Shown here in pieces: positions 3,083 to 58,750 of a stretch of DNA of 64,000 nucleotides. Each line of letters starts with the position of its first letter. The first letter of the stretch is position 1. Made by a program: the position numbers and the translations under genes. Source of the stretch: Kiritimatiellia bacterium (lineage in GTDB: Bacteria > Verrucomicrobiota > Kiritimatiellia > RFP12 > UBA1067); assembly GCA_017463935.1 (NCBI GenBank), contig JAFUEM010000028.1, positions 751 to 64,750 of the forward strand, in the 5' to 3' direction. A model generated the notes under the pieces. That model saw only the letters and a program-made list of their open reading frames with translations, made no database searches and was not told the DNA's origin.

Positions 3083-3682
3083 TTATTTTTCATCGGCGAA
3101 TTCCTCTTCAATGATCTCGGCCATCTGCTCTATGCGGGACTTGATCTTGTAGACCGCGGCCTTGGTTATGCCAAACTTCGCGGCCACATCGTCCAGCGGC
3201 ATTTCATCTTCGACGTATGCCCGATAGACGGCGCGTGATTGCGCGGATATCGCCGTTTTCGTAAGCACATGCTCGATGGCGCTTTGATGCCGCACCATCC
3301 GCCACTTGATGTCTATCTGCTCGGCGACATCCGCCGGGATGGAAGGTTCGACATCGTCAATATCGACATGCAGCCCCGCCCCACGCGCCTGGTCTTTCCG
3401 ATAGAGCGACACGAGATGCCGCCGGATCATCGTGGAAAGAAACGCCCTAAAACTGCCCTTGGACGCATCGTATCCGCCGGACTGCACGACATTCACGAGC
3501 TTGAGGAAGATATCCTGCACCACATCGTCGGGGTCGTGGGCGCTGTCATGATGGGCGACAAACCGCTTGATCGCCGGTTCGTACAGTCCGAAGAACCTGA
3601 CCCACGCCGCCTCGCGTTCGCCGGTCACCCGCACGGCAATCTTCCTCAGCAGCGTCATCGAGGTTTCGGGGAACGCGCTCAC
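3083..3682 (-). CDS. RNA polymerase ECF-type sigma-70 family sigma factor
   Basis: 199 aa; sigma-70 region 2 (DVVQDIFLKL) and region 4 HTH (LDDVAAKFGITKAAVYKIKSR); 4 bp overlap with upstream kinase gene. Confidence 0.85.
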   Translation of the reverse strand: MSAFPETSMTLLRKIAVRVTGEREAAWVRFFGLYEPAIKRFVAHHDSAHDPDDVVQDIFLKLVNVVQSGGYDASKGSFRAFLSTMIRRHLVSLYRKDQARGAGLHVDIDDVEPSIPADVAEQIDIKWRMVRHQSAIEHVLTKTAISAQSRAVYRAYVEDEMPLDDVAAKFGITKAAVYKIKSRIEQMAEIIEEEFADEK

Positions 3683-4737
3683 TTGCCGCCCTCCCTATGC
3701 TGGAGCACATCATCCGCCGAGAACAGTTCTCTGAAATCGTCCTGTTCGGGCGGCGGCGGTTCATTGCTCTTGGAACGGGACGCGGCAATGGCGACTACAG
3801 CAGCGGCAATAACTGCAACAGCGGCGACCGCAATGAACCACCAACGCTTTATGAACGCAAAGCGAGTGGCTGGCGTTTTCATCTGCGTGGATACATCGTC
3901 CTCTGTCGATTCTACCGGCTGCAACTGGCGCGGCAGATCCGAGAGCGGCAACGGGCGTTCCTGTGGATCGACGGAGAGCATCCGAGACAAGACATCGCGC
4001 CACTGGTACTTGAATCCGTCAAGCAGCGCCAGCGCCTTTGTCCCAGGTTCATACCAAAGACCCGTAAGGAGGTGAAAGAACATCACTCCGAGCGAATAGA
4101 CATCTGCTGCCGGCGTCGCGTCATGGCCTGCCAGGACATCCGGGGCCATATAGCCATCTGTGCCCATGATGAGCTTGGATTCCGTCTTGCCATCCGAGAC
4201 AATAGTCCGCGTCACATTGACTTCACGCGAAAGCCCCTCTCCGAAGATGCGCGATACGCCGAAGTCGGAAAGCATCACATGCTTGTCCTCGCGCAGAAGG
4301 ACGTTGCCGAGCTTGATGTCGCGGTGGACGATGCCCTGCGCGTGGATGTAGTCAAGCGCCTTGCACAGATCGTCAAACCAGTCGAAGATGTAGTCCTCTT
4401 CGAGATCGTCCAATTCAATGTCATCCAGCGTATGCGGCGTGCCGTCCTCGTAGGTGATCATGTCCATGACGAAGTACGGAACGCCTGTCGCCTCGTCAAC
4501 GGCCAAGTCGAACACGCGGATGAGATGCGGATTGCGCAACCGCGCCAGCACCTTCCCCTCGGCCAGGAACTTCTTCTTAAGGACATCGACATACCCGCTC
4601 TGCGCCGTGAATGCCTTGAGCGCGTAGTGCACGCCGAGCTGCTCGTGCTCTACTTCGTAGACAGCCCCCATGCCACCCTCTCCAAGAAGGCGGATTACTC
4701 GGTATGCGCCGATTTTATGTCCAGAAGCAAATGTCAT
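3679..4737 (-). CDS. serine/threonine protein kinase with C-terminal transmembrane anchor
   Basis: 352 aa; GEGGMGAVY glycine loop, VAIK-like ALK, HRDIKLGNVLL catalytic loop, DFG motif, hydrophobic WWFIAVAAVAVIAAAVVAIAA segment. Confidence 0.85.
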   Translation of the reverse strand: MTFASGHKIGAYRVIRLLGEGGMGAVYEVEHEQLGVHYALKAFTAQSGYVDVLKKKFLAEGKVLARLRNPHLIRVFDLAVDEATGVPYFVMDMITYEDGTPHTLDDIELDDLEEDYIFDWFDDLCKALDYIHAQGIVHRDIKLGNVLLREDKHVMLSDFGVSRIFGEGLSREVNVTRTIVSDGKTESKLIMGTDGYMAPDVLAGHDATPAADVYSLGVMFFHLLTGLWYEPGTKALALLDGFKYQWRDVLSRMLSVDPQERPLPLSDLPRQLQPVESTEDDVSTQMKTPATRFAFIKRWWFIAVAAVAVIAAAVVAIAASRSKSNEPPPPEQDDFRELFSADDVLQHREGGK

Positions 4738-4771
4738 TCTTTCTATACGTGTCGCCGCTCGGCAATCGAAC

Positions 4772-5053
4772 GAAAAAAAGAAAACCTCCCTTCCTGTTCT
4801 ACTAGAGGCTGTGAGAATTGCCTTGATGGAAACACGAAGAGAGGCAAGCGCGTCTGCGCTTCCTCTGCAAGGTGCCGTCCATCTTGAAACTTCTCACATT
4901 CCTAGTAACGACCGCTTTGCAGCGCAAATTGTCTTGTCGCGCCATAGCCCGTAAGGGCGTAGGCGGATTATGCGGCGGGTCGTTGCCTGCCTATATTCCG
5001 TTTACTGTGGTGTTGCCATTCCTTTCATTTTCAGTTTCACGGCTTGAGATTGA
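4772..5053 (-). ncRNA. conserved ~300 nt leader-like element (copy A) ending in an intrinsic terminator just upstream of the kinase gene
   Basis: About 75-80% identical to 40424..40706 over ~280 nt (e.g. cgacCgctttgcagcgcaaatt, ttcctttcattTtcagtttcacgGcttgagattg); minus-strand hairpin CCUCUCUUC/GGAAGGGAGG followed by UUUUCUUUUUUU at 4773..4850. Confidence 0.4.
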
Positions 5054-5449
5054 TTACAGAAAATCCGCCATGTTCGAAGGCGGCTGCGTTGGCTCTGGCG
5101 GCAGTGTTGCGGCGACTGCCTTCACTTTTTCACATTCGACCGGAATGTCGTTTTGCAGAATATCCCAAATAGTGTCGTAATCTATGTCAGCGTAATCATG
5201 CACAATCTTATGCCTGACACCAGCGAGGCCCTTCCAATCCACTTCAGGATTCTGGGCTGCAAACTCACGGGTGATGTTGTTGGCGGCCTCGCCCAGTACC
5301 ATCAAATTAAAGAGGATCATCTCAGTTGTGTTTTCATGCCGCCGCAACTGGTCGCGCTCCAAGCCCCTGCTCAGCTCTGCTATCCGTTCCATCGCATCCA
5401 GCATGTGCCGAACACGCGAATCATCACGATAAAGCGAAGGATTCGTCAT
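5054..5449 (-). CDS. hepT: HepT-like nucleotidyltransferase substrate-binding toxin (DUF86)
   Basis: ORF 5054..5470; DUF86-like sequence RVRHMLDAMERIAEL...NLMVLGEAANNI...HKIVHDYADID; abuts upstream mntA-like gene. Confidence 0.7.
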   Translation of the reverse strand: MTNPSLYRDDSRVRHMLDAMERIAELSRGLERDQLRRHENTTEMILFNLMVLGEAANNITREFAAQNPEVDWKGLAGVRHKIVHDYADIDYDTIWDILQNDIPVECEKVKAVAATLPPEPTQPPSNMADFL

Positions 5450-5739
5450 ACCGGCACGGCCTCCTTGCAAACACGATGCGCAAAGCCAAGAGACTGCGGC
5501 AGAATCCGAGATGCCACAAGGTCAACTCTGCTGCCAAGCAGTTTTTCATATGCGGATGACATTGCACGTTCATTACGCCAACTATACTCGCCCGGCATCC
5601 ATTTGACAAGAAAATCCACGTCGCTGTCGGGGCGCTCCTCCCTGCGGGCGCACGAGCCGAAGACCCAAAGCTTCTCGGCCTTGTGCCTCCTCGCGATCGC
5701 GTAGATTTCATCCCGCTTCGCGCGTATCTCGTCTAACAT
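5446..5739 (-). CDS. mntA: MntA-like minimal nucleotidyltransferase antitoxin
   Basis: ORF 5446..5751; GSxARxxxxxxSDxD motif (VFGSCARREERPDSDVDFLV). Confidence 0.7.
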   Translation of the reverse strand: MLDEIRAKRDEIYAIARRHKAEKLWVFGSCARREERPDSDVDFLVKWMPGEYSWRNERAMSSAYEKLLGSRVDLVASRILPQSLGFAHRVCKEAVPV

Positions 5740-5764
5740 GCACATTTGCAAGCGCGGATATTAT

Positions 5765-5840
5765 GCCCCAAGAGAAAACAAAGGCATTTTAGCAAAAATC
5801 ATCCTTCCCGTCAATCTGGGGAACGGCGAAAATCGCAGTG
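5765..5840 (-). promoter_or_regulatory. sigma-70 promoter (TTGACG-17-TAAAAT) plus conserved 5'UTR block shared with 41528..41600
   Basis: Minus strand: agaTTGACGggaaggatgatttttgcTAAAATgcctttgttttctcttggggcataatatcc; roughly 80% identical to the region upstream of the GNAT/RHH TA module. Confidence 0.55.
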
Positions 5841-5903: not shown

Positions 5904-6776
5904 TCAGGTAAATGTCAGCTCGGCTTTCTCCCCGGCTCTGCGTCCTGCGTCGTAGACGCGCTGCATGACAGCCGGGTCGTGGCAGACGCGCGAGATCGGC
6001 AAGGGCTCGTCCGGGGCGATGAGAATGGCCTTGCCGGCCGCGACGCGCGCGTCGATGTAGTCGAGCGCCTTGTTGTACCAGATATGGCGCGTTTTCAGCG
6101 CTTCGTAGATGGCCGGATGATGGCGCAGCAGAGGCTTCAGGACGCACAGGCGCCGGCTCGGGAACTTTCGGTAGCCGCGCGGTCGGGTGGTCACGACGAC
6201 ATTCCGCTCATAACCGAGCGACTCGAAGTACCGGAGCGGAATGCCGTCGGACAGTCCGCCGTCAAGGTACAGTCCGCCGTCGATCGCCACCGGCCGCGCG
6301 ACGACCGGCATGGAGGCCGAGGCACGAATCCAGTCGAACGCGCGCGCGTCGGCCCTGTCGAGTTTCCTGTACACGCTCCGGCCGGTCGCACAGTCGGTGG
6401 CGACGATGTGAAACGCCATCGGATTCGCCTCGAACGCTGCGGAGTCGAACACGTCCAGCTCCATTGGGAGCGTCCGGTAGCAGAACTCCGCGCCGAAGAG
6501 GTCGCCTGTGGTCAGGAGCGACCGCCACGAGCAGTAGCGCGGATCGCGGGCGAACCGCTTGTTGTAGCGGATGACGCGGCCGATCTGCCCCGACTTGTAG
6601 TTGCAGCCGAAGCACGCGCCGGCTGACACGCCGACAAGTCCGTCGAACGTGACGCCGCGCTCCATGAGGACGTCGAGCACGCCGGCCGTGAACAGCCCGC
6701 GCATCCCACCGCCTTCCAGCACAAGTCCGGTCTTCATTCTGCCTGTATCTCCGTTTACGGCCTGTTCTTCCGTCAT
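5904..6776 (-). CDS. patatin-like phospholipase
   Basis: ORF 5904..6872; likely start MTEEQAVNG; GGGMRG oxyanion motif and GVSAG nucleophile elbow. Confidence 0.8.
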   Translation of the reverse strand: MTEEQAVNGDTGRMKTGLVLEGGGMRGLFTAGVLDVLMERGVTFDGLVGVSAGACFGCNYKSGQIGRVIRYNKRFARDPRYCSWRSLLTTGDLFGAEFCYRTLPMELDVFDSAAFEANPMAFHIVATDCATGRSVYRKLDRADARAFDWIRASASMPVVARPVAIDGGLYLDGGLSDGIPLRYFESLGYERNVVVTTRPRGYRKFPSRRLCVLKPLLRHHPAIYEALKTRHIWYNKALDYIDARVAAGKAILIAPDEPLPISRVCHDPAVMQRVYDAGRRAGEKAELTFT

Positions 6777-6789
6777 CTTTTCCTTTGCG

Positions 6790-6900
6790 TTGAACAAGAC
6801 AAGAGATATTATAGCAAATATGCAGCTTGAGAAGTTGAGGCGTGTAGAGACTCTCGGCCTGCCCGCACGCAAGCGCCGCCTTGGATTGCACAGGACGAAC
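6790..6900 (-). repeat. ~100 bp repeat carrying an outward extended -10 promoter (TGcTATAAT), copy 1 of 2
   Basis: About 80% identity to 35640..35745 (tattatagcaaatatgcagcttgagaagttgagg...gcccgcacgcaagc); sits immediately upstream of the patatin start. Confidence 0.5.
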
Positions 6901-22878: not shown

Positions 22879-23423
22879 CCGAGAAAGGCAAACTGGCGTT
22901 GCGCAAGCCGCTCGTGCCGGCAAAGCAAAAGCAGAGAAGCGTCAAGAAAAACAATCGCAAGGATTGCAAAAGCAAGCTGTCTCGGACTGTCATATACGGC
23001 ATAACCGATCCCGGCAAGGATGGGCCGGCTATCATGCGGACTATAGCCGACGAGTTGCCGCGCATCCATGATGCCACCGGCGGCAGGATAGACAAGGTCG
23101 TAATTGATTGCCATTATTCCACTCAGGCATCTCTCTCCTCGCCGTTTGAAGTGGATTACGAAAAGACAACAAGTCTGCAAACTGATTTGAAGATAGGCGA
23201 ATTCACAATCCGCACCAACTATCGTAACAGTAAATATGCCGATGAAAATTCTCGCGACATCAAGGCGATATTTGAGGAGTTGAGGCGGCTCCACCATCAA
23301 CTTGGCGACCAGATAAGCGAGATAGATGATGACCCTGAAGACGCCAGCAGCGCATTGGAGGACATCCACGCCGAAATGGAAACGCAATTGGATGCTCTTG
23401 AAGAGGCGCTTGAAGAAGAGTAA
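22875..23423 (+). CDS. hypothetical protein with basic N-terminus and acidic C-terminus
   Basis: Translationally coupled (ATGA overlap) to the preceding gene; 182 aa. Confidence 0.5.
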   Translation: MTEKGKLALRKPLVPAKQKQRSVKKNNRKDCKSKLSRTVIYGITDPGKDGPAIMRTIADELPRIHDATGGRIDKVVIDCHYSTQASLSSPFEVDYEKTTSLQTDLKIGEFTIRTNYRNSKYADENSRDIKAIFEELRRLHHQLGDQISEIDDDPEDASSALEDIHAEMETQLDALEEALEEE

Positions 23424-23538
23424 GCGATGAAACGAAGTTCTCCAAGGCAGGCTCGAAAAAGCGTACCGCAACGGACATATTCCATTGTTGGTGTCTTTAC
23501 TATTAGATTACTCAAGGACATTTATTGGGAATAGTTTC

Positions 23539-24618
23539 ATGGCCTTGACAATTGGTTCATTCAATCTTTGCAATTTCAGTTCAAACGAGGACCGCAAGTT
23601 CCCCAAGGACTATAGTGCGATTGCGAATGCAATTTTAATGTCAGGCGCAGATGTAATTGCGCTTCAAGAGGTTATAGATCAGCAAGCGATAAATAGTTTA
23701 CTGAATCAACTTCGCGGACTTGGAGGCGCGAATCGAGACTGGCGGGGCTTCTTTGATAAGAAGGCGACGTGGCGCAACAATCGTGAGGGATATGCATTTG
23801 TGTGGGACGAAAAATGCGTGACTTTTGCAAAGGACGATGATGGTAATGAGGTGTTGCCCGAATTAGTAACAAAGTTTACCTCAATAAAGCGTCCACCGAT
23901 GGTTGCAAGGTTTGTTACTACGGGATCGGGTGAATTGCACTATGAACTCTGTGTAATAAACACACATATCGTTTTCAAACCAGATGGTTATCAGGCGCGA
24001 CACCCGGAGTGGTATGGAGGTGCTGCGATAAGAGCATTCGAATATTCGAAGATCGTTAACAGTGTTTATCCGCGTTTCAGCAATAAGCACTGTACATACA
24101 CGATTATTGCTGGCGACTATAACTTGAAAAGTTCTATGCTTGCTGTAGTTAATGCTCGTCCTAAGCTATCTAAAGGGCAGCCTACTATGATGTCCGTGCA
24201 AAGCGATAAGACAACAATCAAAACAACAGATTCAATGATTGATGATACATGTGAATCTCAGGGAAGTAAGCCAGATGACATAGGTCTCTTCGCTGCAATT
24301 TATAATGGCGTTATGCGGCTATTCAAGAATGGCGAGTCGATAGGTCGGCCTCCGTCTCAGTTGGCGGATAAACAAGCGCAAACAGAGAATGCAGAAACGC
24401 AGCAACCAACTGCGGATGGCACATATGTTAGTGATTATGATCACTTCAGTTTTGAAGTTGGTCGGGTTGGCGACTATGTGAGAAATGCACATCGCGTTAA
24501 CGCCCCTGAGCTTCTTTATCCAACGCCGAGTCGTATGTTTCATTCCTATAAAGAAGGAGTATCGGATCATGTGCCGATAGCGGCAACACTTGATTTGTCT
24601 GCATCACAGTCATTGTAA
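23539..24618 (+). CDS. endonuclease/exonuclease/phosphatase (EEP, DNase I-like) family protein
   Basis: IALQEV, IIAGDYN and SDHVPI motifs characteristic of the EEP fold; low-GC gene. Confidence 0.7.
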   Translation: MALTIGSFNLCNFSSNEDRKFPKDYSAIANAILMSGADVIALQEVIDQQAINSLLNQLRGLGGANRDWRGFFDKKATWRNNREGYAFVWDEKCVTFAKDDDGNEVLPELVTKFTSIKRPPMVARFVTTGSGELHYELCVINTHIVFKPDGYQARHPEWYGGAAIRAFEYSKIVNSVYPRFSNKHCTYTIIAGDYNLKSSMLAVVNARPKLSKGQPTMMSVQSDKTTIKTTDSMIDDTCESQGSKPDDIGLFAAIYNGVMRLFKNGESIGRPPSQLADKQAQTENAETQQPTADGTYVSDYDHFSFEVGRVGDYVRNAHRVNAPELLYPTPSRMFHSYKEGVSDHVPIAATLDLSASQSL

Positions 24619-24628
24619 GGAGAATAAC

Positions 24629-27469
24629 ATGAACAACATCATTTCCCAGCTATTTTCAAGGAGCGACAGGTCTCGTTCCATAACCAAAATCGACGCATCG
24701 CTCAAGCGAAGCGATGCTAACAAACTCCGAGCGGCAACTGCGCTTAACATGTGCATGGCGTCCGTGTCCGAGATTATCGCCAAGAACAACCTTGTTGCGA
24801 TGGAACATGAATATAATACGATTCTCAATAATCTCAATATGGAGTCTATCATCAAGGATGAGGCTTTGCTTAAGGTTATGAGGAAGTTACTTGACACGAT
24901 TTCGTTCTTCCGCTTGAATGACATGGAGCGCAAGCGCCTTGAAGAGCGTCATGAGCGGAAGATGAGCGGATCCGTTCTGGATAAACTTCTCTCCGGGGGC
25001 ACATCACTCATCGTATGTGTCGGCAATCCAATCGCTCTAGCAACGACTGCTGCTGTAGTTGGAGCAAGTATGTATGCAAACAAGAGGAAGGAGGATGCGA
25101 AAGAGCGGGAGAAGTTTGAGGATAAAATGTGGGAGTTGGAACGTTCGGCAATAGAGCAGCTTCATGCGCTACGTGTCGAGCTATTTGAATGTGCCTGGCG
25201 ACTTTCGGATGCCTACGAATTCAAAGATGAATGGCGGCTTACGGAAAAACAGATTGATTGGTACAATGAGGCAAAGAGCGAATACGATCCATTTCTTCGC
25301 TTTGCAAAACTCAATCAGCGTCGCGAGGATTTTTCGATTTACCCGCAGTATTGGTACGAGCTAGGTTCTGCCGCGCTTGAAATCACACAGTTGCCTGTAA
25401 AGGATGTCGATTGTGAAGATGAAATCAAGAAGGCAAGACATGAAGAGATAATCAAATCCTATCTTGATGAAGCGAAATCATGTTTTGGCAAGTATATCGA
25501 CTGTGACCCGCATCTTCTTCGTCAGGACTTTTTCTCTGCGGATGCGCGTATAAAGTATATTAGCATTGTTAAAGAAGAAACCGGTGGGTGGGCTTCCGCA
25601 CTGTTGGCGGAGGGTGATAAGTTGATGAGCGTTCGCCGTCTTGCATTGGATAATTCCGAATTGTTGCTTAAAGTGGCGATGATCTATGCTGCAGCGTTTA
25701 TTGAGTTAAAAGCAAAGGCCGAGAAAGCTCCTGTCGATGGAAGTGCAGCACTCTCCGATACCGAGAGCGACGTTGTCGCCGACTGGTATAAACAGGCGGT
25801 GGCATGTCTTGAAGTTCTTGTAATGCGCGAGTCAATGCTGCCAGTTAGTTCTGTACTCCTGAGCGCTTTACAGAAGATTAATGATGATAAGGTTGCGTAT
25901 GAGCATATCTGTCGCATAAAAGACAGTGCTCGCAATAATAAGATTATTCTCGTTGACTATGATTCTGAACATAATATCGCAGAGACAGTAAAGAAGACGA
26001 TTGAGGAATATGGTAAGAAATCAGTTGCGTCTATTAAGACGCTTTTCGCTCGGTCTTACGGAATGATTCTTCAGCTTGCAGAACCTGCATTTAATGTGTC
26101 GGAGGATGAGCAACGCAAGGTGCTTCAGAAGTGGGCTTCGGACACCAAGGATTTTCATGTGGGAATGTTGCAGTTGTGGGAGTTGCTTAAAGGCGAATTT
26201 AATACCTTCTTCATCTTTGTCGGAAGAGAGTACGAGAAATGTCCGGCTGCTGACAAACAACTTGAGGAGATAGCTAAAAAGCTTAATGATACTTTCACTA
26301 AGGAAATGGATGTCGATAAGCCTGGGAGACCTGATGAAAAGGCGTCTGCCGTTGTGCGTGTTACGGATCATATCCGCAGAGAGTTTATATCCAAAATGAA
26401 TGATTTTGTCGAGACTTTTAACGGTGATGGTGATGATAAAGTTCCAGCCGAGGAGTTTCGAGGATCGTTGTCGTTCTACATTGATTCTGTGTGTTCTCGT
26501 AAAAGTATCATTAACATAAATAAGGATAGTCGGTCTTATGACGCTTGTCGTCTTGACTATTTTAGAGGAATCGAACCGCAGAGTCTCGAAGAAGACGAAA
26601 CAGACCAGTGGGAGCCATCGCTCTTTGGTGCGGATAGGGAATATACACAAGACGGTTTGGTTTTTGAGTTTACAAAGATTGATCACGCAGAATACATCGA
26701 ACGTCTCATTGATAAGAGATTGTCATATAGAGTTACGTTTAAAGAAGCTTCGTCTCCGTCTGAGTTGCGCAGACTCGTTGAGGAGTGTATGAATCTTCTT
26801 ATATTCAAATATCAAGGCTACAATGCCAGCGTTCGAGATTTGCGGTCTAAAAGGGATTGCGGCGGATTTTGGAAGAAAACAGGCAATTTCTTCGCGAAGT
26901 GTGGCAAAAAGATATACAATATTACAAATAACCGGGATTATATCATTGAGATTTATGATGATCGGATTGATGTGGCATATCAGCGAGTGAACGATAATGA
27001 GTCTGTTATGCCGATTGCGCTTCTTTCGCATCAAGCGCTCGAGCGCGAAGTGAAACGACTGCTTAATTCTTCGATAGGGAAAGGGTCTCCTGAGTATAAT
27101 CGCCTTTGTGAGGCATTCGTTCGAACGATTGACGAAGAATTCACGGAGATGGTCTCTGAATTTGAGACCATTAAGGCCAAGCTTAACGATAAGCAAGTCG
27201 CGAAGCAAAGAGCAAAGATTATGAAGCGTTTTGTGAAAGCCATTGGTGCGTTCTGTAAGAAGGCTAATGGCAGACACCTTTGGGCCGCTAAAGAGCTGAT
27301 GTGTAATCTCCTCGGTGATGTTCATTCGGGGCAACTCAAGCTTGATATCGTGTCTCGGAACGTTATCGATGATAGTAGTCTTACCGCAGCGCAATTAGAA
27401 TTTAAGGACAGATCCGAGATTGGAGAATCTTGTACGAATCCAGTGCCTAAAGATACAGAGACCCTGTGA
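24629..27469 (+). CDS. large (946 aa) hypothetical protein, one predicted hydrophobic segment near residue 130, low-GC composition
   Basis: AAGGAG SD 7 nt before ATG 24629; uninterrupted 2.8 kb ORF in the AT-rich island; no recognisable domain. Confidence 0.7.
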   Translation: MNNIISQLFSRSDRSRSITKIDASLKRSDANKLRAATALNMCMASVSEIIAKNNLVAMEHEYNTILNNLNMESIIKDEALLKVMRKLLDTISFFRLNDMERKRLEERHERKMSGSVLDKLLSGGTSLIVCVGNPIALATTAAVVGASMYANKRKEDAKEREKFEDKMWELERSAIEQLHALRVELFECAWRLSDAYEFKDEWRLTEKQIDWYNEAKSEYDPFLRFAKLNQRREDFSIYPQYWYELGSAALEITQLPVKDVDCEDEIKKARHEEIIKSYLDEAKSCFGKYIDCDPHLLRQDFFSADARIKYISIVKEETGGWASALLAEGDKLMSVRRLALDNSELLLKVAMIYAAAFIELKAKAEKAPVDGSAALSDTESDVVADWYKQAVACLEVLVMRESMLPVSSVLLSALQKINDDKVAYEHICRIKDSARNNKIILVDYDSEHNIAETVKKTIEEYGKKSVASIKTLFARSYGMILQLAEPAFNVSEDEQRKVLQKWASDTKDFHVGMLQLWELLKGEFNTFFIFVGREYEKCPAADKQLEEIAKKLNDTFTKEMDVDKPGRPDEKASAVVRVTDHIRREFISKMNDFVETFNGDGDDKVPAEEFRGSLSFYIDSVCSRKSIININKDSRSYDACRLDYFRGIEPQSLEEDETDQWEPSLFGADREYTQDGLVFEFTKIDHAEYIERLIDKRLSYRVTFKEASSPSELRRLVEECMNLLIFKYQGYNASVRDLRSKRDCGGFWKKTGNFFAKCGKKIYNITNNRDYIIEIYDDRIDVAYQRVNDNESVMPIALLSHQALEREVKRLLNSSIGKGSPEYNRLCEAFVRTIDEEFTEMVSEFETIKAKLNDKQVAKQRAKIMKRFVKAIGAFCKKANGRHLWAAKELMCNLLGDVHSGQLKLDIVSRNVIDDSSLTAAQLEFKDRSEIGESCTNPVPKDTETL

Positions 27470-27593
27470 TGAACTGTGTTGATGAGTTTTCCGACTTTAT
27501 GAGAAGAGACATCTATTTCATAATGCCGTACCGCTCTTCGTAATCGCAGTTGGGCTGTTTGTCATCGGCCTTAATGTTTAATTAACTATTGAA

Positions 27594-34897: not shown

Positions 34898-35539
34898 TCA
34901 AAATACATACTCCTCTCCATCGTCCGGCATCAGGACGCGCCCGGCAAGGCCGCGCCGTTCGAGCGCGGCACGAAGCGTCTTGCGCGTGAGCGAGGCGTGG
35001 GCAACCGTGTCCATGTGGCTCGCGATGACCGTGGCGTTTGGCGCGGCGCGGCAGACGCTTTCGACATCCGCATCGTCCATGATGAGGCGTCCGTATGTCT
35101 TAAGCTGCGCGGCGCAGGCGTTCAGGACGACGACCTCGGGCTTGAGCGCGGACATTGCCTCCGCCGTCTCGTCGCACCAGATCGTGTCGCCGAGGATCCA
35201 GAGCGACTTCTTTTCAGCGGGCGAGGTGAAGAACACGCCGGACGCCGGGCCGCACGGCGTTTTCGTCCCGTGCTTGGCGAATGTGCGCGTGAGCGTCACG
35301 CCGCGAAAGGCAACGCCATTGACCGTGAACATCTGCACATCCTTGAACCCGGAACGTTTCATGATGGCGGCCTCGTCTTCGTTCTGTACAAAGAGCGGAA
35401 CCGCCTTGTCGAGCTTCGCGCCGGCCGTGCCGTCCGCCGCCATGTCGAAGTGGTCGGGGTGAAGGTGCGTAAGAACGTATGCATCGACGCCGCCGAAGTT
35501 GATGCGAAGCGTCGCATTACGAATTTGTTTTATTTTCAT
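34898..35539 (-). CDS. MBL-fold metallo-hydrolase
   Basis: THLHPDHF motif; 213 aa. Confidence 0.75.
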
Positions 35540-35640: not shown

Positions 35641-35745
35641 ATTATAGCAAATATGTAGCTTGAAAAGTTGAGGAAAGTAGATATGCTTGGTATGCCCGCA
35701 CGCAAGCACCGCTTTAGATTACGCAGGACGGCCCAACCCGACTTG
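35640..35745 (-). repeat. ~100 bp promoter-bearing repeat, copy 2
   Basis: See 6790..6900; its TGcTATAAT box is immediately followed by the truncated DUF1653 coding sequence. Confidence 0.5.
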
Positions 35746-36166
35746 TCTGGCAACAAGCACTTCTCGCTCTTCTCATGGTGAGAGGAGCGGAACGTCACAC
35801 CAACCACAACAGGAGAAATCCACAATGAACGGAAAGATCAACACACCTCGCACCGTGTGCAAGGCCATCGTCGCCGTGGCAATCGCGACAATTAATCACA
35901 GTCGCGGCCATCATCGACTGCTCGTCTCTCGACGGAGGCTCGCGCAAGGCGAACATCGCCACGATCATCCAGACCGCCTACGACATGGTATCCCCGAGCG
36001 AGATTCGCCTGTCGCCGTAGGCGATCAGGTGGGCCGAATGAGCGTAGCGAATGAGCCGCAAAGCGGTCGCAAGGCCCCGCGCGAGGTGCTTTCGCATAGC
36101 GAAAGTCACAAGAGCCCGCGGAAGTGCGCCGATTGCAAGGCCCGCGAGTAGAAGCGTTCCCGCAAA

Positions 36167-36212
36167 GGCGGTCACGTCGTTCTTCGGAGCGGCGTGACCG
36201 CTTTTTTCGTTT
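36167..36212 (+). terminator. strong rho-independent terminator (GGCGGTCACG...CGTGACCGC TTTTTTCGTTTTC)
   Basis: 9-10 bp GC-rich stem with T-run; only on plus strand; no convincing protein gene upstream. Confidence 0.55.
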
Positions 36213-39799: not shown

Positions 39800-40314
39800 T
39801 TTGTCGCCTCATCCTGCTTGTTGTTAATGTATATCTCTCTGTATGCAAATTCATCCGAGCTGGTGTTCCAGTTCAGCTCTCCTATAGCCGATGTGTTTTC
39901 TTTCTCGTAAACGCGGAATGATTCTTTTGTTCTAAACAAATCGCCCTCAACATGCACCAATTCATTCCTGACATTAAATGTAGGGCACCCACCGTCTCCA
40001 AAATCAAACCATTCGAATATCCAAGCCTTATATTCGTAGCCTGACGTTACTGAGAATATGACACCTCTGCGTAGGTGACGCCCACCTTGTTCCTTGTAAA
40101 TCTGATATAGAACCATGCCAGGCCCAGTGAGTCTAAATGTTCGTGCTGGTGACGGGATCTTACACCCACCCCAATTATCGTATACTGAACAAAGCCGCAG
40201 ACACTCTTCACGACCAATAGGGTCTTTCATGTTTGAGGTTGTATTTGTAAGTCCGACACGCTTAGCGGTCGGCTTATCACAATCTGAACCAAACAACCAG
40301 GTTAACAATCCCAT
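39796..40314 (-). CDS. hypothetical protein, first gene after leader copy B
   Basis: ORF 39796..40350; preferred start MGLLTWLFG with GGAGGA SD (alternative GTG at 40350). Confidence 0.5.
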   Translation of the reverse strand: MGLLTWLFGSDCDKPTAKRVGLTNTTSNMKDPIGREECLRLCSVYDNWGGCKIPSPARTFRLTGPGMVLYQIYKEQGGRHLRRGVIFSVTSGYEYKAWIFEWFDFGDGGCPTFNVRNELVHVEGDLFRTKESFRVYEKENTSAIGELNWNTSSDEFAYREIYINNKQDEATK

Positions 40315-40423
40315 ACTGCAATCCTCCAACATGCCCTTGTTGAGTTTCACTTCGCAAGGATCGGGCTTGTCCTCGTTCCGCGTCGCTTTGCTGTTCGGCG
40401 GTCAGATACGAATCGAGGGCATG

Positions 40424-40706
40424 AAAAAGCCTCGCTTCGTGTCTCGAGCGAGGTCGTAGAGATTACCCTGAATGAAACACGAAGCGAGGCGAACGCATTA
40501 TGCGTCCCTCTGCCAAGTGTCGTCATTCGTGAAATTCTCTACGTTTCGCTCGACGACTGCTTTGCAGCGCAAATTACTGTCATATCCACTGGTCGCAAAC
40601 CGCCGTGAAGCGGTCGCTAGAGTGGGGTGCGGATTTCTCCCGCCTTATCGTTTTAACTGTCTATGGGCATGTTCCTTTCATTGTCAGTTTCCACGATTTG
40701 AGATTG
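40424..40706 (-). ncRNA. conserved ~300 nt leader-like element (copy B) with intrinsic terminator
   Basis: Homologous to 4772..5053; minus-strand hairpin CCUCGCUCGagacaCGAAGCGAGG + CUUUUU at 40424..40453, with alternative longer pairing to upstream GCCUCGCUUCGUGU. Confidence 0.4.
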
Positions 40707-41303
40707 TTACGCAACAAGGGCGTTGCTCAATACGCAGAGCATTTGATCGTAATCAACGCCGTCTTTGCCATCGTGCCTTTCGTTCCACGATTGAAAATTC
40801 CATCGGGTGTAGAAGTTCACCAATTCGGGTGACTTCATGTCGCGTTCCACAAGAACAAGTTTGCCGCCGACAATTTCCCTCGCTGCATATAGTTTCTCGA
40901 ACGCGAGCCTTAGAAGCTCGTCGCCGCTGATGCGTTCGCCGTCCTCGATGGCAAAGTTCTTTCCGATCTGCGCAATCAGATAAACGGCTGCCGTATAGCG
41001 TTCCCCGTCCACGTCGGCAAAACGTTCGATCAAACGGCATTTGGTCTTTGACAACTTCTCCTTCCCTATGGAAAACGGTTTCAAGACCAATGTGAAATAA
41101 CCCAACAAGAGAGATGTGGTGTTGTCGTAAACCAGATACGTCATCGACGCGCCAAGATGTAGCGAATGGACAGCCTTCTTTTGCAGGAAATCTTGAACCT
41201 CCGCGTTCAAGGGACACGAGAAATCTTCAAACGAATATCCCTCAGCCAAACCGCCGGCAGATTCAAACTGCCGCAGAGATATTACTGCCACATCACGCTT
41301 CAT
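40707..41303 (-). CDS. GNAT-family acetyltransferase toxin (TacT/AtaT-like)
   Basis: 198 aa GNAT fold; 4 nt overlap with upstream small RHH-type gene; classic antitoxin-toxin order. Confidence 0.6.
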   Translation of the reverse strand: MKRDVAVISLRQFESAGGLAEGYSFEDFSCPLNAEVQDFLQKKAVHSLHLGASMTYLVYDNTTSLLLGYFTLVLKPFSIGKEKLSKTKCRLIERFADVDGERYTAAVYLIAQIGKNFAIEDGERISGDELLRLAFEKLYAAREIVGGKLVLVERDMKSPELVNFYTRWNFQSWNERHDGKDGVDYDQMLCVLSNALVA

Positions 41304-41509
41304 GCGCCAACCCTGCTACGACGGGCGCGAACAACACGCTTGACGAAATTCGCAACCTCTCGTTTGTTGCGAAACTCGTGAGCCGTTCCCGTAGGCACAG
41401 GAGCCACCCATTTCGCGGGCGGTTTTTCCGACAACAGCAAATCCACAAAGGTGTTTGCCGCCTTTGCGTTATCGCAGTAGAAGTTCGCCGTTATGCTTGA
41501 TGTTGCCAT
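41300..41509 (-). CDS. small antitoxin (RHH/DUF1778-like) partner of GNAT toxin
   Basis: ORF 41300..41602; start MATSSITANF... with GAGGTGA SD; 69 aa. Confidence 0.5.
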   Translation of the reverse strand: MATSSITANFYCDNAKAANTFVDLLLSEKPPAKWVAPVPTGTAHEFRNKREVANFVKRVVRARRSRVGA

Positions 41510-41527
41510 GTTGTCACCTCGCTTTCC

Positions 41528-41600
41528 GTTCAAGGGCATAATACCCCCAAAGAAAAACAAGTGTAGTTTAGCAAAAATCGCGGCAAGAGTCAATTGGGGC
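41528..41600 (-). promoter_or_regulatory. sigma-70 promoter (TTGACT-17-TAAACT) plus conserved 5'UTR, homologous to 5765..5840
   Basis: Minus strand: aaTTGACTcttgccgcgatttttgcTAAACTacacttgtttttctttgggggtattatgccc. Confidence 0.55.
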
Positions 41601-47783: not shown

Positions 47784-47872
47784 GGGAGGGCCGACCTCCG
47801 TGTCGGCCTTTCCCGACGCGGCCGGGACGGCGCCCGGCCCTCCCAGCGTGGGGACAGCGCCCGGCCCTCCCA
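47784..47872. repeat. REP array (GGGAGGGCCGACCTCCGTGTCGGCC and GGCCGGGACRGYGCCCGGCCCTCCC hairpin units)
   Basis: Palindromic GC-rich units repeated; same units at 48361..48497 on the other side of the RAYT gene. Confidence 0.6.
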
Positions 47873-47885
47873 CATTTGCCTTGTG

Positions 47886-48360
47886 TTATCGATCATGCCA
47901 TTCCAGAATATTCATTTCACCTTGATACGGCCAGTCATCCGCATTATCGACAAGGCCACGACGCACTGGGTTATTCCGCACATATTCCCACTTTGCCGCA
48001 TAACTGTCTCCACTGCGGAGTTGCGTATCCCAGCAGTTCCGCTGCCACAGCGGAATGCTGTGCTCGACGGGAAAGGTCCGCGACGAAAGCGACTTCCAAT
48101 AGTTGAGCCAACGATGGAAATCAGGCGGTGGATATGTTGATGGTGCGCAGAAGAAATGTATGTGATCGGGCATGATGACAAAACGCCCGACAAGCCAGTT
48201 GTCGGCTTTTCGCCACGCGTTGATTATACAATCAAAGGCGATCTTGTTGTCCAGCACCTTTTGTCGAAGATTCGCAACTATGGTAACGAAAAGAACAATC
48301 GTCCTGTTGTCATGCGTCAACAGAACTGAGTTCTTCGATGGCCGCTTGCGCCCACGCATG
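47886..48360 (-). mobile_element. REP-associated tyrosine transposase (RAYT, IS200-like HUH)
   Basis: HUH motif MPDHIHFF, catalytic Tyr region AAKWEYVRNNP; flanked by REP arrays; the ORF track's 5' extension to 48581 is REP-encoded. Confidence 0.7.
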
Positions 48361-48497
48361 GGAGGGCCGACCTCCGTGTCGGCCATTTCCCCCGCGGCCG
48401 GGACAGAGCCCGGCCCTCCCGCAACCATGCACATGGGAGGGCCGACCTCCGTGTCGGCCTTCTTCGCCGCGGCCGGGACGGTGCCCGGCCCTCCCGG
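48361..48497. repeat. REP array flanking the RAYT gene
   Basis: Three or more copies of the same palindromic units as 47784..47872. Confidence 0.6.
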
Positions 48498-48543
48498 CGT
48501 GCCGCCGTCACCAAAAGAAATCGTCGCTCGGCTTTGCATCCCA

Positions 48544-58107: not shown

Positions 58108-58166
58108 TTCCTTTCTTTTTATCTCACGCGGAGAGGCGGAGAAGCGGAGATTTTTTCGGACGGGCG
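58108..58166. repeat. direct repeat DR1 of GCGGAGA-repeat family (TTTTATCTCACGCGGAGAGGCGGAGAAGCGGAGATTTTTTCGGACG)
   Basis: 47 bp identical to 58686..58732; encodes (reverse strand) the last 10 codons and stop of the GxxExxY gene. Confidence 0.6.
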
Positions 58167-58550
58167 AGGCCCTGAATAGTCTTTCACAATCCTCGCATAG
58201 CCATCTTTCAGTTTCTCCATGCCAAAGTTGACTAGAACTCCAACATGGAGTCCTGTCACGGTCAAATATGTCTTAACTTGTTTAGCAAAGACAGGATGCA
58301 TCTGTTCGGTAGACTTAAGTTCCACAATGACCATCCCGTCAACGAGCATATCCAATCTGAAGGCAGTATCCAGCACCGCCCCCTCGTATTCAAGAGATAT
58401 GGGCTTTTGCCGTTCCACCGTATGTCCTCTCCGCTTCAGTTCCTCCGCGAGCAAGATCTCATAGACAGACTCCAGCATGCCAGGACCGAATTGCCTGTGA
58501 ATCTTGATTGACGAATCAAGGATATCCTTTGTTATCTCGTTTTCAGTCAT
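58119..58550 (-). CDS. GxxExxY family protein
   Basis: ORF 58119..58568; start MTENEITK...; GxxExxY-like LESVYEIL; bracketed by the repeats. Confidence 0.7.
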   Translation of the reverse strand: MTENEITKDILDSSIKIHRQFGPGMLESVYEILLAEELKRRGHTVERQKPISLEYEGAVLDTAFRLDMLVDGMVIVELKSTEQMHPVFAKQVKTYLTVTGLHVGVLVNFGMEKLKDGYARIVKDYSGPRPSEKISASPPLRVR

Positions 58551-58675: not shown

Positions 58676-58733
58676 CTTTCATTCTTTTTATCTCACGCGG
58701 AGAGGCGGAGAAGCGGAGATTTTTTCGGACGAA
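58676..58733. repeat. direct repeat DR2 of GCGGAGA-repeat family
   Basis: Identical 47 bp core; additional inverted partial copy at ~58560..58600 immediately upstream of the GxxExxY start. Confidence 0.6.
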
Positions 58734-58750
58734 CGAGGGCCATGTGGCTC

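Follow-up and report, generated by a model that had tools for sequence, protein, structure and literature searches.

A conserved leader RNA with two mutually exclusive predicted structures follows a probable toxin-antitoxin cassette in a Kiritimatiellia bacterium

Many families of toxin-antitoxin (TA) modules accumulate in sedentary chromosomal integrons and other variable hotspots (e.g., PMC11023631). The locus that we describe has further counterparts among type II modules that combine a GNAT toxin with an RHH antitoxin (TacAT, AtaRT, KacAT, GmvAT, and ItaRT), among HepT/MntA (type VII) pairs, and among attenuators such as the trp, pyr, and T-box leaders. It lies on the minus strand of a 64,000-nucleotide stretch of contig JAFUEM010000028.1 from a Kiritimatiellia bacterium; we call this whole stretch the window. 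A promoter, a small open reading frame (ORF), an ORF for a GNAT-fold protein, and a structured non-coding leader follow one another there, and the same non-coding frame occurs a second time in the window, around a different TA pair. We refer to these as copy B, which is our subject, and copy A. Copy B is probably one transcription unit, in which a type II TA cassette is joined to a cis-acting attenuator leader of ~280 nt that would control read-through into accessory genes. We found neither this family of RNAs nor its repeated use as a docking site by TA cassettes in Rfam 15 or in the literature that we searched; the logic of attenuation is itself known. Specifically, Rfam 15 gave no matches at the gathering score across the whole window, and for three leader copies it gave only chance-level matches at E values of up to 10.

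Copies of the leader were collected by an exact scan for a 22-mer (AATTTGCGCTGCAAAGCNGTCG) in one genome per GTDB species. The scan returned 49 loci, including 3 chance matches; the 46 that we retained are nearly all from Kiritimatiellia or "Verrucomicrobia" metagenome-assembled genomes from rumen and gut, and several genomes have 3-4 copies. The same 22-mer matched at least 120 loci in metagenomes, for a family total of at least 165 copies, and had 0 matches in viral contigs. Because every copy was found through this one 22-mer, the breadth of the family is a lower bound, and the invariance of the segment that we call region 0 is an artefact of the search. Conservation was analyzed with an alignment of 42 leader copies (A4) and with an extended set of 130 distinct sequences that includes metagenome copies.

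Two extended structures are conserved in the leader. The first is a long hairpin (helices P1-P5; Table 1). RNAalifold predicted 40 pairs from A4: 33 in this hairpin and 7 in an adjacent hairpin formed by region 0. At these 40 pairs, 95.8% of the alignment cells are paired, versus 40-47% if the partners are slid by 1-3 columns. Both bases have changed, with pairing kept, at 23 of the 40 pairs, all of them in the long hairpin, and many positions show four Watson-Crick types. The number of doubly changed cells was 298, as compared to 82 ± 12 in shuffled alignments, and none of 500 shuffles reached the observed value on four of our five measures. Across the 130 sequences, each pair of the long hairpin is a standard pair in 92-100%. 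The predicted stability of the leader also exceeds that of shuffled sequences, with z = -4.7 for copy B and z = -3.4 for copy A.

The second structure is a long-range stem that pairs GCCUCNCUUCGUGU (40477-40490) with ACACGAAGNGAGGC (40429-40442). It is paired in 92% of cells in the 42 copies, where 7 of its 14 pairs are doubly changed, and in 97.8% of cells in the 130 sequences. It has the G+C-rich stem and the run of U's of an intrinsic terminator, with an atypically long loop. The 5' strand of this stem also serves the long hairpin, as the 3' strand of its helices P3-P4 (columns 101-114 of A4 are shared), so the long hairpin and the terminator cannot coexist. In other words, the leader has a conserved alternative structure that excludes the terminator, and both structures covary. 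When we folded the 130 sequences under constraints, the energy of the terminator state minus that of the antiterminator state was +1.5 ± 5.4 kcal/mol, and the terminator state was the more stable one in 57 of them. Predicted energies that are balanced in this way are as expected of a switch.

A preliminary description of this DNA had proposed an attenuator-like arrangement at the 3' end of the leader: a short hairpin (CCUCGCU/AGCGAGG), with an upstream repeat of its 5' arm that would allow an alternative longer pairing. The arrangement was recovered, as the pair of mutually exclusive structures. The repeat is present (GCCUCGCUUCGUGU at 40477-40490, complementary to ACACGAAGCGAGGC at 40429-40442), and the longer pairing turns out to be the conserved and covarying terminator stem. 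The short hairpin fared less well: it is present in copy B, but only its CCUC/GAGG part is conserved (76% of cells paired in the 42 copies), and what is conserved as a terminator is the long-range stem instead (92% for the 42 copies and 98% for the 130). Judging from the aligned sequences, the short hairpin is an extra feature that is mostly specific to copy B.

Just upstream of the long hairpin, region 0 (CUGCAA...GGUCGUC) has its complement in region 1 (GACGAC...UUGCAG), the 5' strand of P3-P4. For this pairing, 94% of cells are compatible, versus 21-54% if one strand is slid. In region 1, columns 63-68 show transitions only, while the neighboring columns 59-62 vary freely; transitions in columns 63-68 keep both the pairing with region 0 (by wobble) and the pairing with region 2 (by compensation). 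Region 0 is a candidate anti-antiterminator, and its pairing with region 1 is a putative step that is compatible with these data.

We propose that four segments of the leader would compete: region 0 (GCUGCAA..GGUCGUC), region 1 (GACGAC..UUGCAGAGG), region 2 (GCCUCNCUUCGUGUUUC), and region 3 (ACACGAAGNGAGGC and the U-run). If region 1 pairs with region 2, then the long hairpin would act as an antiterminator, region 3 would remain free, and transcription would read through. If region 0 pairs with region 1 instead, then region 2 would be released to form the terminator with region 3. The balance would be set by a factor, either a small ligand or a protein, that acts on the 5' domain of the leader or on region 0. 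Most likely, the leader would thus decide between termination at 40424-40428 and read-through into the gene island that follows. The slot that separates promoter and leader would hold the TA cassette as a passenger, which would supply or replace the promoter; if the TA promoter is autoregulated, it would feed the leader and modulate its input. TA addiction could also stabilize the adjacent variable genes.

Table 1. Positions in the window of the features of copy B and copy A
Feature	Positions	Strand	Remarks
Promoter, copy B	41565..41593	-	Sigma-70-type: TTGACT, 17-nt spacer, TAAACT; extended -10 (TG)
Inverted repeat/hairpin in 5' untranslated region (5'-UTR)	41522..41552	-	CUUUGGGGG...GCCCUU..GAAAG; immediately 5' of the Shine-Dalgarno (SD) sequence of the small ORF
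Small ORF, putative antitoxin, 69 aa	41300..41509	-	ATG at 41509, with GAGG in front
GNAT-fold ORF, 198 aa	40707..41303	-	ATGA overlap (4 nt) with small ORF
Non-coding leader, 283 nt	40424..40706	-	Begins right after toxin stop; no conserved ORF
5' domain of leader	40576..40706	-	Starts right after toxin stop; conserved AAUGAAAGGAAC (block 40671-40706) lies within nested helices S1 and S2
Hairpin H2, GC-rich	40629-40644	-	Each of five positions pairs in 24-25 of 25 copies
Extra hairpin specific to copy B	40586-40625	-	In 5' domain
Region 0, AAUUUGCGCUGCAAAGCAGUCG	40554..40575	-	Local hairpin or pairing with region 1; invariance follows from search pattern
Long hairpin (regions 1 and 2), 111 nt	40443..40553	-	Helices P1-P5, conserved internal loops; read as antiterminator
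Long-range terminator stem, 14 bp	40429..40490	-	5' arm GCCUCGCUUCGUGU, 40477-40490; 3' arm ACACGAAGCGAGGC, 40429-40442
U-run 3' of terminator stem	40424..40428	-	In 129 of 130 copies, 5 or more of the 9 nt that follow the stem are U
Second leader module, form 1	40331..40422	-	AUGCCCUCGAUUCGU...GCGGAACGAGGACAAGCCCGAUCCUUGCGAAGUGAAAC..AGGGCAU; conserved before unrelated genes; pairings judged by eye
First gene of low-GC island, 172 aa	39796..40314	-	ATG at 40314; SD GGAGGA at 40322-40327; no family match
Leader, copy A	4771..5052	-	Region 0 at 4909-4930; terminator arms 4832-4845 and 4784-4797
Cargo, copy A	5054..5814	-	Promoter 5783-5814; MntA-like nucleotidyltransferase 5446-5751; HepT 5054-5449

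The strand and the surroundings of the leader suggest that it acts in cis. The leader helices contain frequent G-U pairs, which would be A-C on the opposite strand; these fix the transcribed strand, so the folded RNA and the TA genes share a strand. The first plausible start codon is a median of 88 nt 3' of the U-run, and the interval holds a second conserved module. Besides the form in copy B (form 1), there is a form 2, as in copy A, with a U-run plus CGUUCC, complementary to the ribosome-binding site (RBS) GGAACGAAAAUG. Because of the regular spacing and the conservation near the RBS of unrelated genes, we view the RNA as a cis-acting leader rather than as a free-standing small RNA (sRNA). 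If it were a trans-acting or 3'-UTR-derived sRNA with its own terminator, then the long hairpin would serve stability or processing (e.g., as an RNase III site) and read-through would be incidental. This would account for the copies that begin directly behind a promoter of their own and end in a stem and U-run, for the presence of several copies per genome, and for several GGA-containing loops (AUGAAAGGA, GCAGAGGAA, and CAAGGCA), which we take to resemble those of protein-sequestering sRNAs. However, a simple sRNA does not need two exclusive and covarying structures with balanced energies, nor would it explain a gene start on the same strand at a regular distance, after a second conserved module towards the RBS. 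We consider an sRNA unlikely.

The 5' domain of the leader is less uniform. In most copies, the RNA begins at (C)CAAUCUCAA, directly 3' of the stop codon of the upstream gene. Helices S1 and S2 differ between subtypes in a compensatory way: S1 is AUCGU/ACGAU in copy B and CCGU/ACGG or UCCG/CGGA in other subtypes, and S2 is AACUG/CAGUU in copy B and ACUC/GAGU in another. Single-sequence folds recovered S1 and S2 in most copies, and these folds are the basis for both helices, as RNAalifold recovered only hairpin H2 from the mixed alignment of 5' domains. In another subtype, the leader has a different 5' part and immediately follows a TATAAT promoter, without an ORF in between (L027, L031, L051, L053, L054, and L061; also L020, L029, and L057). 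The region 100-200 nt upstream of the promoter in L031, L051, L053, L054, L061, and L027 contains a conserved non-coding stretch (..CTAACTGTCACTAATCC.., ..GCCGCGATTTT..), 5' of TATAAT.

Within the 5' domain, AUGAAAGGA (40655-40678; 5003-5029 in copy A) opens a mini-ORF of 6-8 codons, which encodes MKGTCP in copy B and MKGMATPQ in copy A. Attenuation of the classical leader-peptide type, by translation of this mini-ORF (AUG AAA GGA ...), would fit with the in-frame stop codon that follows AUGAAAGGA in most copies, including copies A and B. We rejected this explanation, which is extremely improbable: the mini-ORF has no SD sequence; its AUG is not conserved (it is ACG, GCG, or AUA in L015, L059, L020, L030, and L057); the subtype that lies directly behind a promoter lacks the whole block; and the mini-ORF is more than 100 nt upstream of the competing helices. 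As a separate observation, the AUGAAAGGA block resembles the RBS of the downstream gene in form 2 leaders, and UUUUCGUUCC, which follows the terminator, is complementary to both.

As for the genes of the TA cassette, the elements that the preliminary description had listed are all present on the minus strand: the promoter TTGACT-17-TAAACT at 41565-41593 (-35 at 41588-41593; -10 at 41565-41570, preceded by TG), the two ORFs with their ATGA overlap, and a non-coding leader that ends in GAGGC and five U's. The larger ORF encodes a protein of 198 amino acids with no match in Pfam, NCBIfam, or PADLOC; the GNAT models of Pfam miss it. It has 285 homologues in public data, and the only named one is a "GNAT family acetyltransferase" (Kiritimatiellae). 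A profile built from 30 homologues (A3) matched GmvT, TacT1, TacT, KacT/TacT, AtaT2, and AtaT in the PDB (E = 3e-7 to 3e-6). The AlphaFold2 model of the protein has a pLDDT of 88.9, and when it was compared to the PDB with Foldseek, ranks 1-29 were all GNAT toxins of TA systems (E = 2e-8 to 1e-6): TacT, TacT1-3, AtaT, AtaT2, KacT, GmvT, and 7byy, which is described only as a bacterial toxin. The ordinary acetyltransferases SpeG, PaiA, and Naa60 ranked below these. Since Pfam, NCBIfam, and PADLOC are silent, the kinship with toxins was revealed only by the profile and the predicted fold.

Two motifs were also considered. The FY motif near the C terminus carries the catalytic tyrosine in TacT, AtaT, and KacT. 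In our 30 homologues, F164-Y165 is invariant and aligns with FY of GmvT and with FF of the TacT1 chain (7ak8), so by alignment the protein has the C-terminal xFYxxxGF motif. LIAQIGKN (109-116) is also invariant and lies in the strand-helix region that is expected for acetyl-CoA motif A (Q/R-x-x-G-x-G/A), outside of the alignment to toxin sequences. The profile and the model support the assignment of this predicted protein to the GNAT clade of TacT, AtaT, KacT, and GmvT, as the label "GNAT toxin" in the preliminary description implied. With just 14-19% identity to known toxins, it is a new, divergent member of the GNAT toxins, and it is likely to be a toxin of the TacT/AtaT kind that acetylates aminoacyl-tRNA.

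The small ORF encodes a protein of 69 amino acids with 48 homologues, all of which begin with MATSSITANF; the invariant N terminus is MATSSITANFxC..KAAN. Searches of Pfam, NCBIfam, PADLOC, and the PDB (the last with a profile of the antitoxin alignment) brought up no relative. Its AlphaFold2 monomer model is of low confidence, with helices at 15-26 and 49-68 and a disordered N terminus, and is too poor for a fold search. Thus, directly upstream of the GNAT gene we found this ORF, with a 4-nt overlap, rather than an antitoxin of the RHH/DUF1778 type. The same layout, with the small gene first and a 4-nt overlap, is kept at L007-L012, where the GNAT homologues are 50-56% identical and the contexts quite different, and neither the non-coding frame nor the leader is present at those loci.

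The two ORFs might not be a TA module at all, and might instead encode an ordinary acetyltransferase of the GNAT family and an unrelated small protein or regulator. No model in Pfam, NCBIfam, or PADLOC recognizes either protein, the small ORF has no RHH/DUF1778 match, and the identity to known toxins is low, all of which would be expected of such a pair. Nevertheless, the best matches by both sequence and fold are specifically to TA toxins, ahead of SpeG, PaiA, and Naa60; the layout is the usual one for a TA operon and is conserved in other contexts; and in other genomes the same slot is filled by recognized TA pairs. We find the ordinary pair quite improbable. Given the kinship by fold and profile and the recurring two-gene layout, we accept a GNAT toxin and its small partner as a TA module: copy B encodes a probable type II TA module, by prediction, and the 69-amino-acid protein is likely to be its antitoxin and autorepressor.

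Copy A has the same frame around an MntA/HepT pair; the preliminary description had called copy B a second copy of the framework. Identity between the two copies is 73% for the promoter and 5'-UTR (~90 nt) and 77% for the ~290 nt that follow the toxin stop codon, behind unrelated TA pairs. Since the proteins in the slot are unrelated, the frame is independent of its cargo. No further copies were found in the window with motifs (up to 3 mismatches) or with nhmmer profiles that included or omitted the 22-mer. The promoter and 5'-UTR module is present at 9 loci, some with cargo other than the GNAT pair. The inverted repeat within it was recovered by RNAalifold from 8 related loci, with some compensatory differences (e.g., L039 and L026), and may be an operator or an RNA hairpin. 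The idea that this framework is a property of TA modules was not supported: the frame is shared, but it is not bound to TA modules, as the leader also occurs directly behind promoters without any ORF and the GNAT pair also occurs without the leader.

Across the family, many kinds of TA-like cassettes occupy the slot. The cargos, whose families we checked against Pfam, include HepT/MntA, six groups of PIN proteins (four confirmed by Pfam), the GNAT pair, a PD-(D/E)XK Rpn-like nuclease, an ORF6N protein, and a pair of membrane proteins; DUF3990 and a DUF2204/AbiEii-like nucleotidyltransferase also occur, each together with a small partner. Upstream sequence of 700 nt or more is available for 110 leader copies; in 73 of these, a TA-like cargo lies less than 400 nt upstream. 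At about 9 genome loci a promoter directly precedes the leader with no ORF in between.

Several loci contain apparent traces of cassette replacement. About 110 nt of the 5' end of MntA precedes unrelated cassettes (a DUF2204 nucleotidyltransferase or a PIN variant) in L014, L029, L048, and L058, and these fragments look like scars of cassette replacement. Remnants of the 69-amino-acid gene precede PIN cassettes in L026 and L039. Partial copies of the leader lie upstream of cassettes that are then followed by a full leader (L046, L047, and L057); in L047, a cassette of promoter plus PIN truncates the first copy within helix P1. Degenerate remnants of region 0 precede the MntA promoter in L023 and L055, again with a full leader after. 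In L037, two HepT genes lie ~1200 to 120 nt upstream of one leader, apparently as tandem MntA/HepT cassettes. Because the breakpoints differ, homologous or illegitimate recombination fits better than a site-specific system.

These traces raise the question of whether the repeated sequence is a mobile or recombination element that acts as DNA, such as a miniature inverted-repeat transposable element or a folded hairpin resembling attC, that carries TA cassettes. It is multi-copy, and it contains a palindrome that is long, if imperfect; one TA cassette replaces another in the same slot; truncated copies and MntA scars lie beside the cassettes; and a PD-(D/E)XK Rpn-like nuclease is in the slot of L016 and L034. 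On the other hand, the G-U pairs point to RNA, the truncations share no fixed crossover site, and the copies keep a fixed distance from gene starts. Also, there is one element per locus rather than an array, no integrase was seen (without a systematic search), and the viral contigs had no matches. We are very doubtful of a DNA element. An attC-like or other repeated recombination site in the island, which we considered separately, found no support, as the island has no repeated hairpins. We prefer to view the RNA as an attenuator leader because none of the alternatives explains structures that are exclusive, covarying, and balanced together with a fixed spacing to start codons.

Turning to the genes that the leader would control, copy B does lead into an AT-rich island, as was noted earlier: GC is 0.41-0.49 from the leader to about 36160, where the island is ended by a hairpin (36164-36205). 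It encodes the unmatched 172-amino-acid protein, a weakly Sel1-like protein, a Pmp3-like peptide, and an ankyrin protein. Behind the same GNAT pair and leader, L003 and L004 differ from L001 by an extra gene of 65 codons and by a 307-amino-acid gene in place of a 279-amino-acid gene; therefore, the content of the island turns over among close strains. Across the family, the leader is followed by envelope and accessory genes of very diverse kinds. Downstream of the copy A leader are a Ser/Thr kinase gene (3679-4737) and then an ECF sigma gene. Elsewhere, the downstream genes encode Sel1-repeat and zinc-ribbon proteins, a PrsW-type membrane protease, a BspA-type surface protein with leucine-rich repeats, DUF805/SHOCT proteins, proteins with lectin or FGE domains, and many proteins without a family match. 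Across loci, GC is slightly lower downstream (0.51) than upstream (0.54). In sum, the structured 5' parts are not accompanied by genes of one pathway, as they would be for a typical metabolite riboswitch. Such a heterogeneous regulon argues against a pathway-specific metabolite as the signal and leaves a global signal or a dedicated RNA-binding protein. More tentatively, and with a good deal less confidence, we suggest that the leader could be a new class of RNA switch, one that either senses a global signal or a second messenger as a riboswitch or is bound by a dedicated antiterminator protein. It would govern, in Kiritimatiellia, a regulon of envelope and accessory genes acquired by horizontal transfer and would double as a docking platform for TA modules, so that TA autoregulation and the switch would jointly gate the expression and retention of the island.

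Some findings weigh against an attenuator joined to a TA module. The attenuator is deduced from sequence and predicted structure. Intrinsic terminators do not usually have a loop as long as the ~36 nt that this terminator stem closes, and a simple terminator scan reports neither hairpin (the loop exceeds 8 nt). Region 0 is fixed by the search pattern, so its pairing with region 1 has no covariation of its own, and more generally, ascertainment with a single 22-mer overestimates conservation across the family. The downstream genes have no shared function, which fits a metabolite riboswitch poorly. On the protein side, the acetyl-CoA motif A cannot be aligned by sequence, and the small ORF matches no antitoxin family, including RHH and DUF1778, and has a poor model.

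The window also contains other repeats and a second low-GC stretch. Two 90-nt stretches (6808-6897 and 35641-35730) are 82% identical and end, on the minus strand, in ATTTGCTATAAT. They precede a patatin-like gene (5904-6872) and an MBL-fold/SMR operon (34898-35539), each near a gene for an HxlR-type regulator, and look like a shared promoter/operator of two paralogous operons. Three 67-nt GC-rich palindromic REP-like repeats (GGGAGGGCCGACCTCCGTGTCGGCC...GGCCGGGAC.G.GCCCGGCCCTCCC) are at 47784-47850, 48360-48426, and 48435-48501. A 65-nt repeat (58108-58172 and 58677-58741; 92% identical) starts with a T-rich part, contains three GCGGAGA-like units, and could be a regulatory region that is repeated. 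The second low-GC stretch (23000-27500; GC 0.42-0.47) is on the plus strand and includes an ORF of 959 amino acids (24590-27469); motif and profile searches of the window found no copy of the leader before it.

If our interpretation is correct, then a large and well-covarying RNA family with a clear switch architecture, from a poorly studied phylum of the gut and rumen, is absent from Rfam 15. There would also be a genomic rule for where TA modules settle, namely between a promoter and one particular leader, that holds for many TA families. This would make the question of why TA modules are placed where they are in chromosomes testable, with stabilization of variable genes, stress-responsive transcription, and recombination bias as the candidates. 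And the GNAT toxins would gain a divergent branch whose partner protein is unclassified.

How does the locus compare with the known systems? It resembles the GNAT/RHH modules in the fold of the toxin, in its best sequence matches, in the C-terminal FY, in having the small gene first with a 4-nt overlap, and in its varied genomic contexts. It differs in that the predicted toxin has 198 amino acids, versus about 160-175, and is missed by Pfam's GNAT models, and in that its partner lacks a match to DUF1778 or RHH; activity here is a prediction. With the expression platforms that switch between terminator and antiterminator in riboswitches and in protein-dependent attenuators (multi-segment leaders such as trp, pyr, and T-box), it shares exclusive antiterminator and terminator helices that use one strand in common, a U-run, balanced energies, and an extra upstream segment that could sequester the antiterminator strand. 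In contrast to those leaders, it has no match in Rfam 15, its terminator stem encloses ~36 nt, its downstream genes are heterogeneous, and TA operons are embedded upstream of the sensor part.

The TA cassettes of integrons and hotspots are similar in that many TA families occur at one type of site, beside variable accessory genes that they possibly stabilize. Here, however, the island has no attC array, there is no fixed crossover, and no integrase was seen (again without a systematic search); what the loci have in common is a structured RNA that is transcribed, with the slot on its upstream side. A further comparison is within the window: the HepT/MntA pair of copy A, whose proteins are unrelated to those of copy B, occupies the same slot, between a related promoter and 5'-UTR and the same leader.

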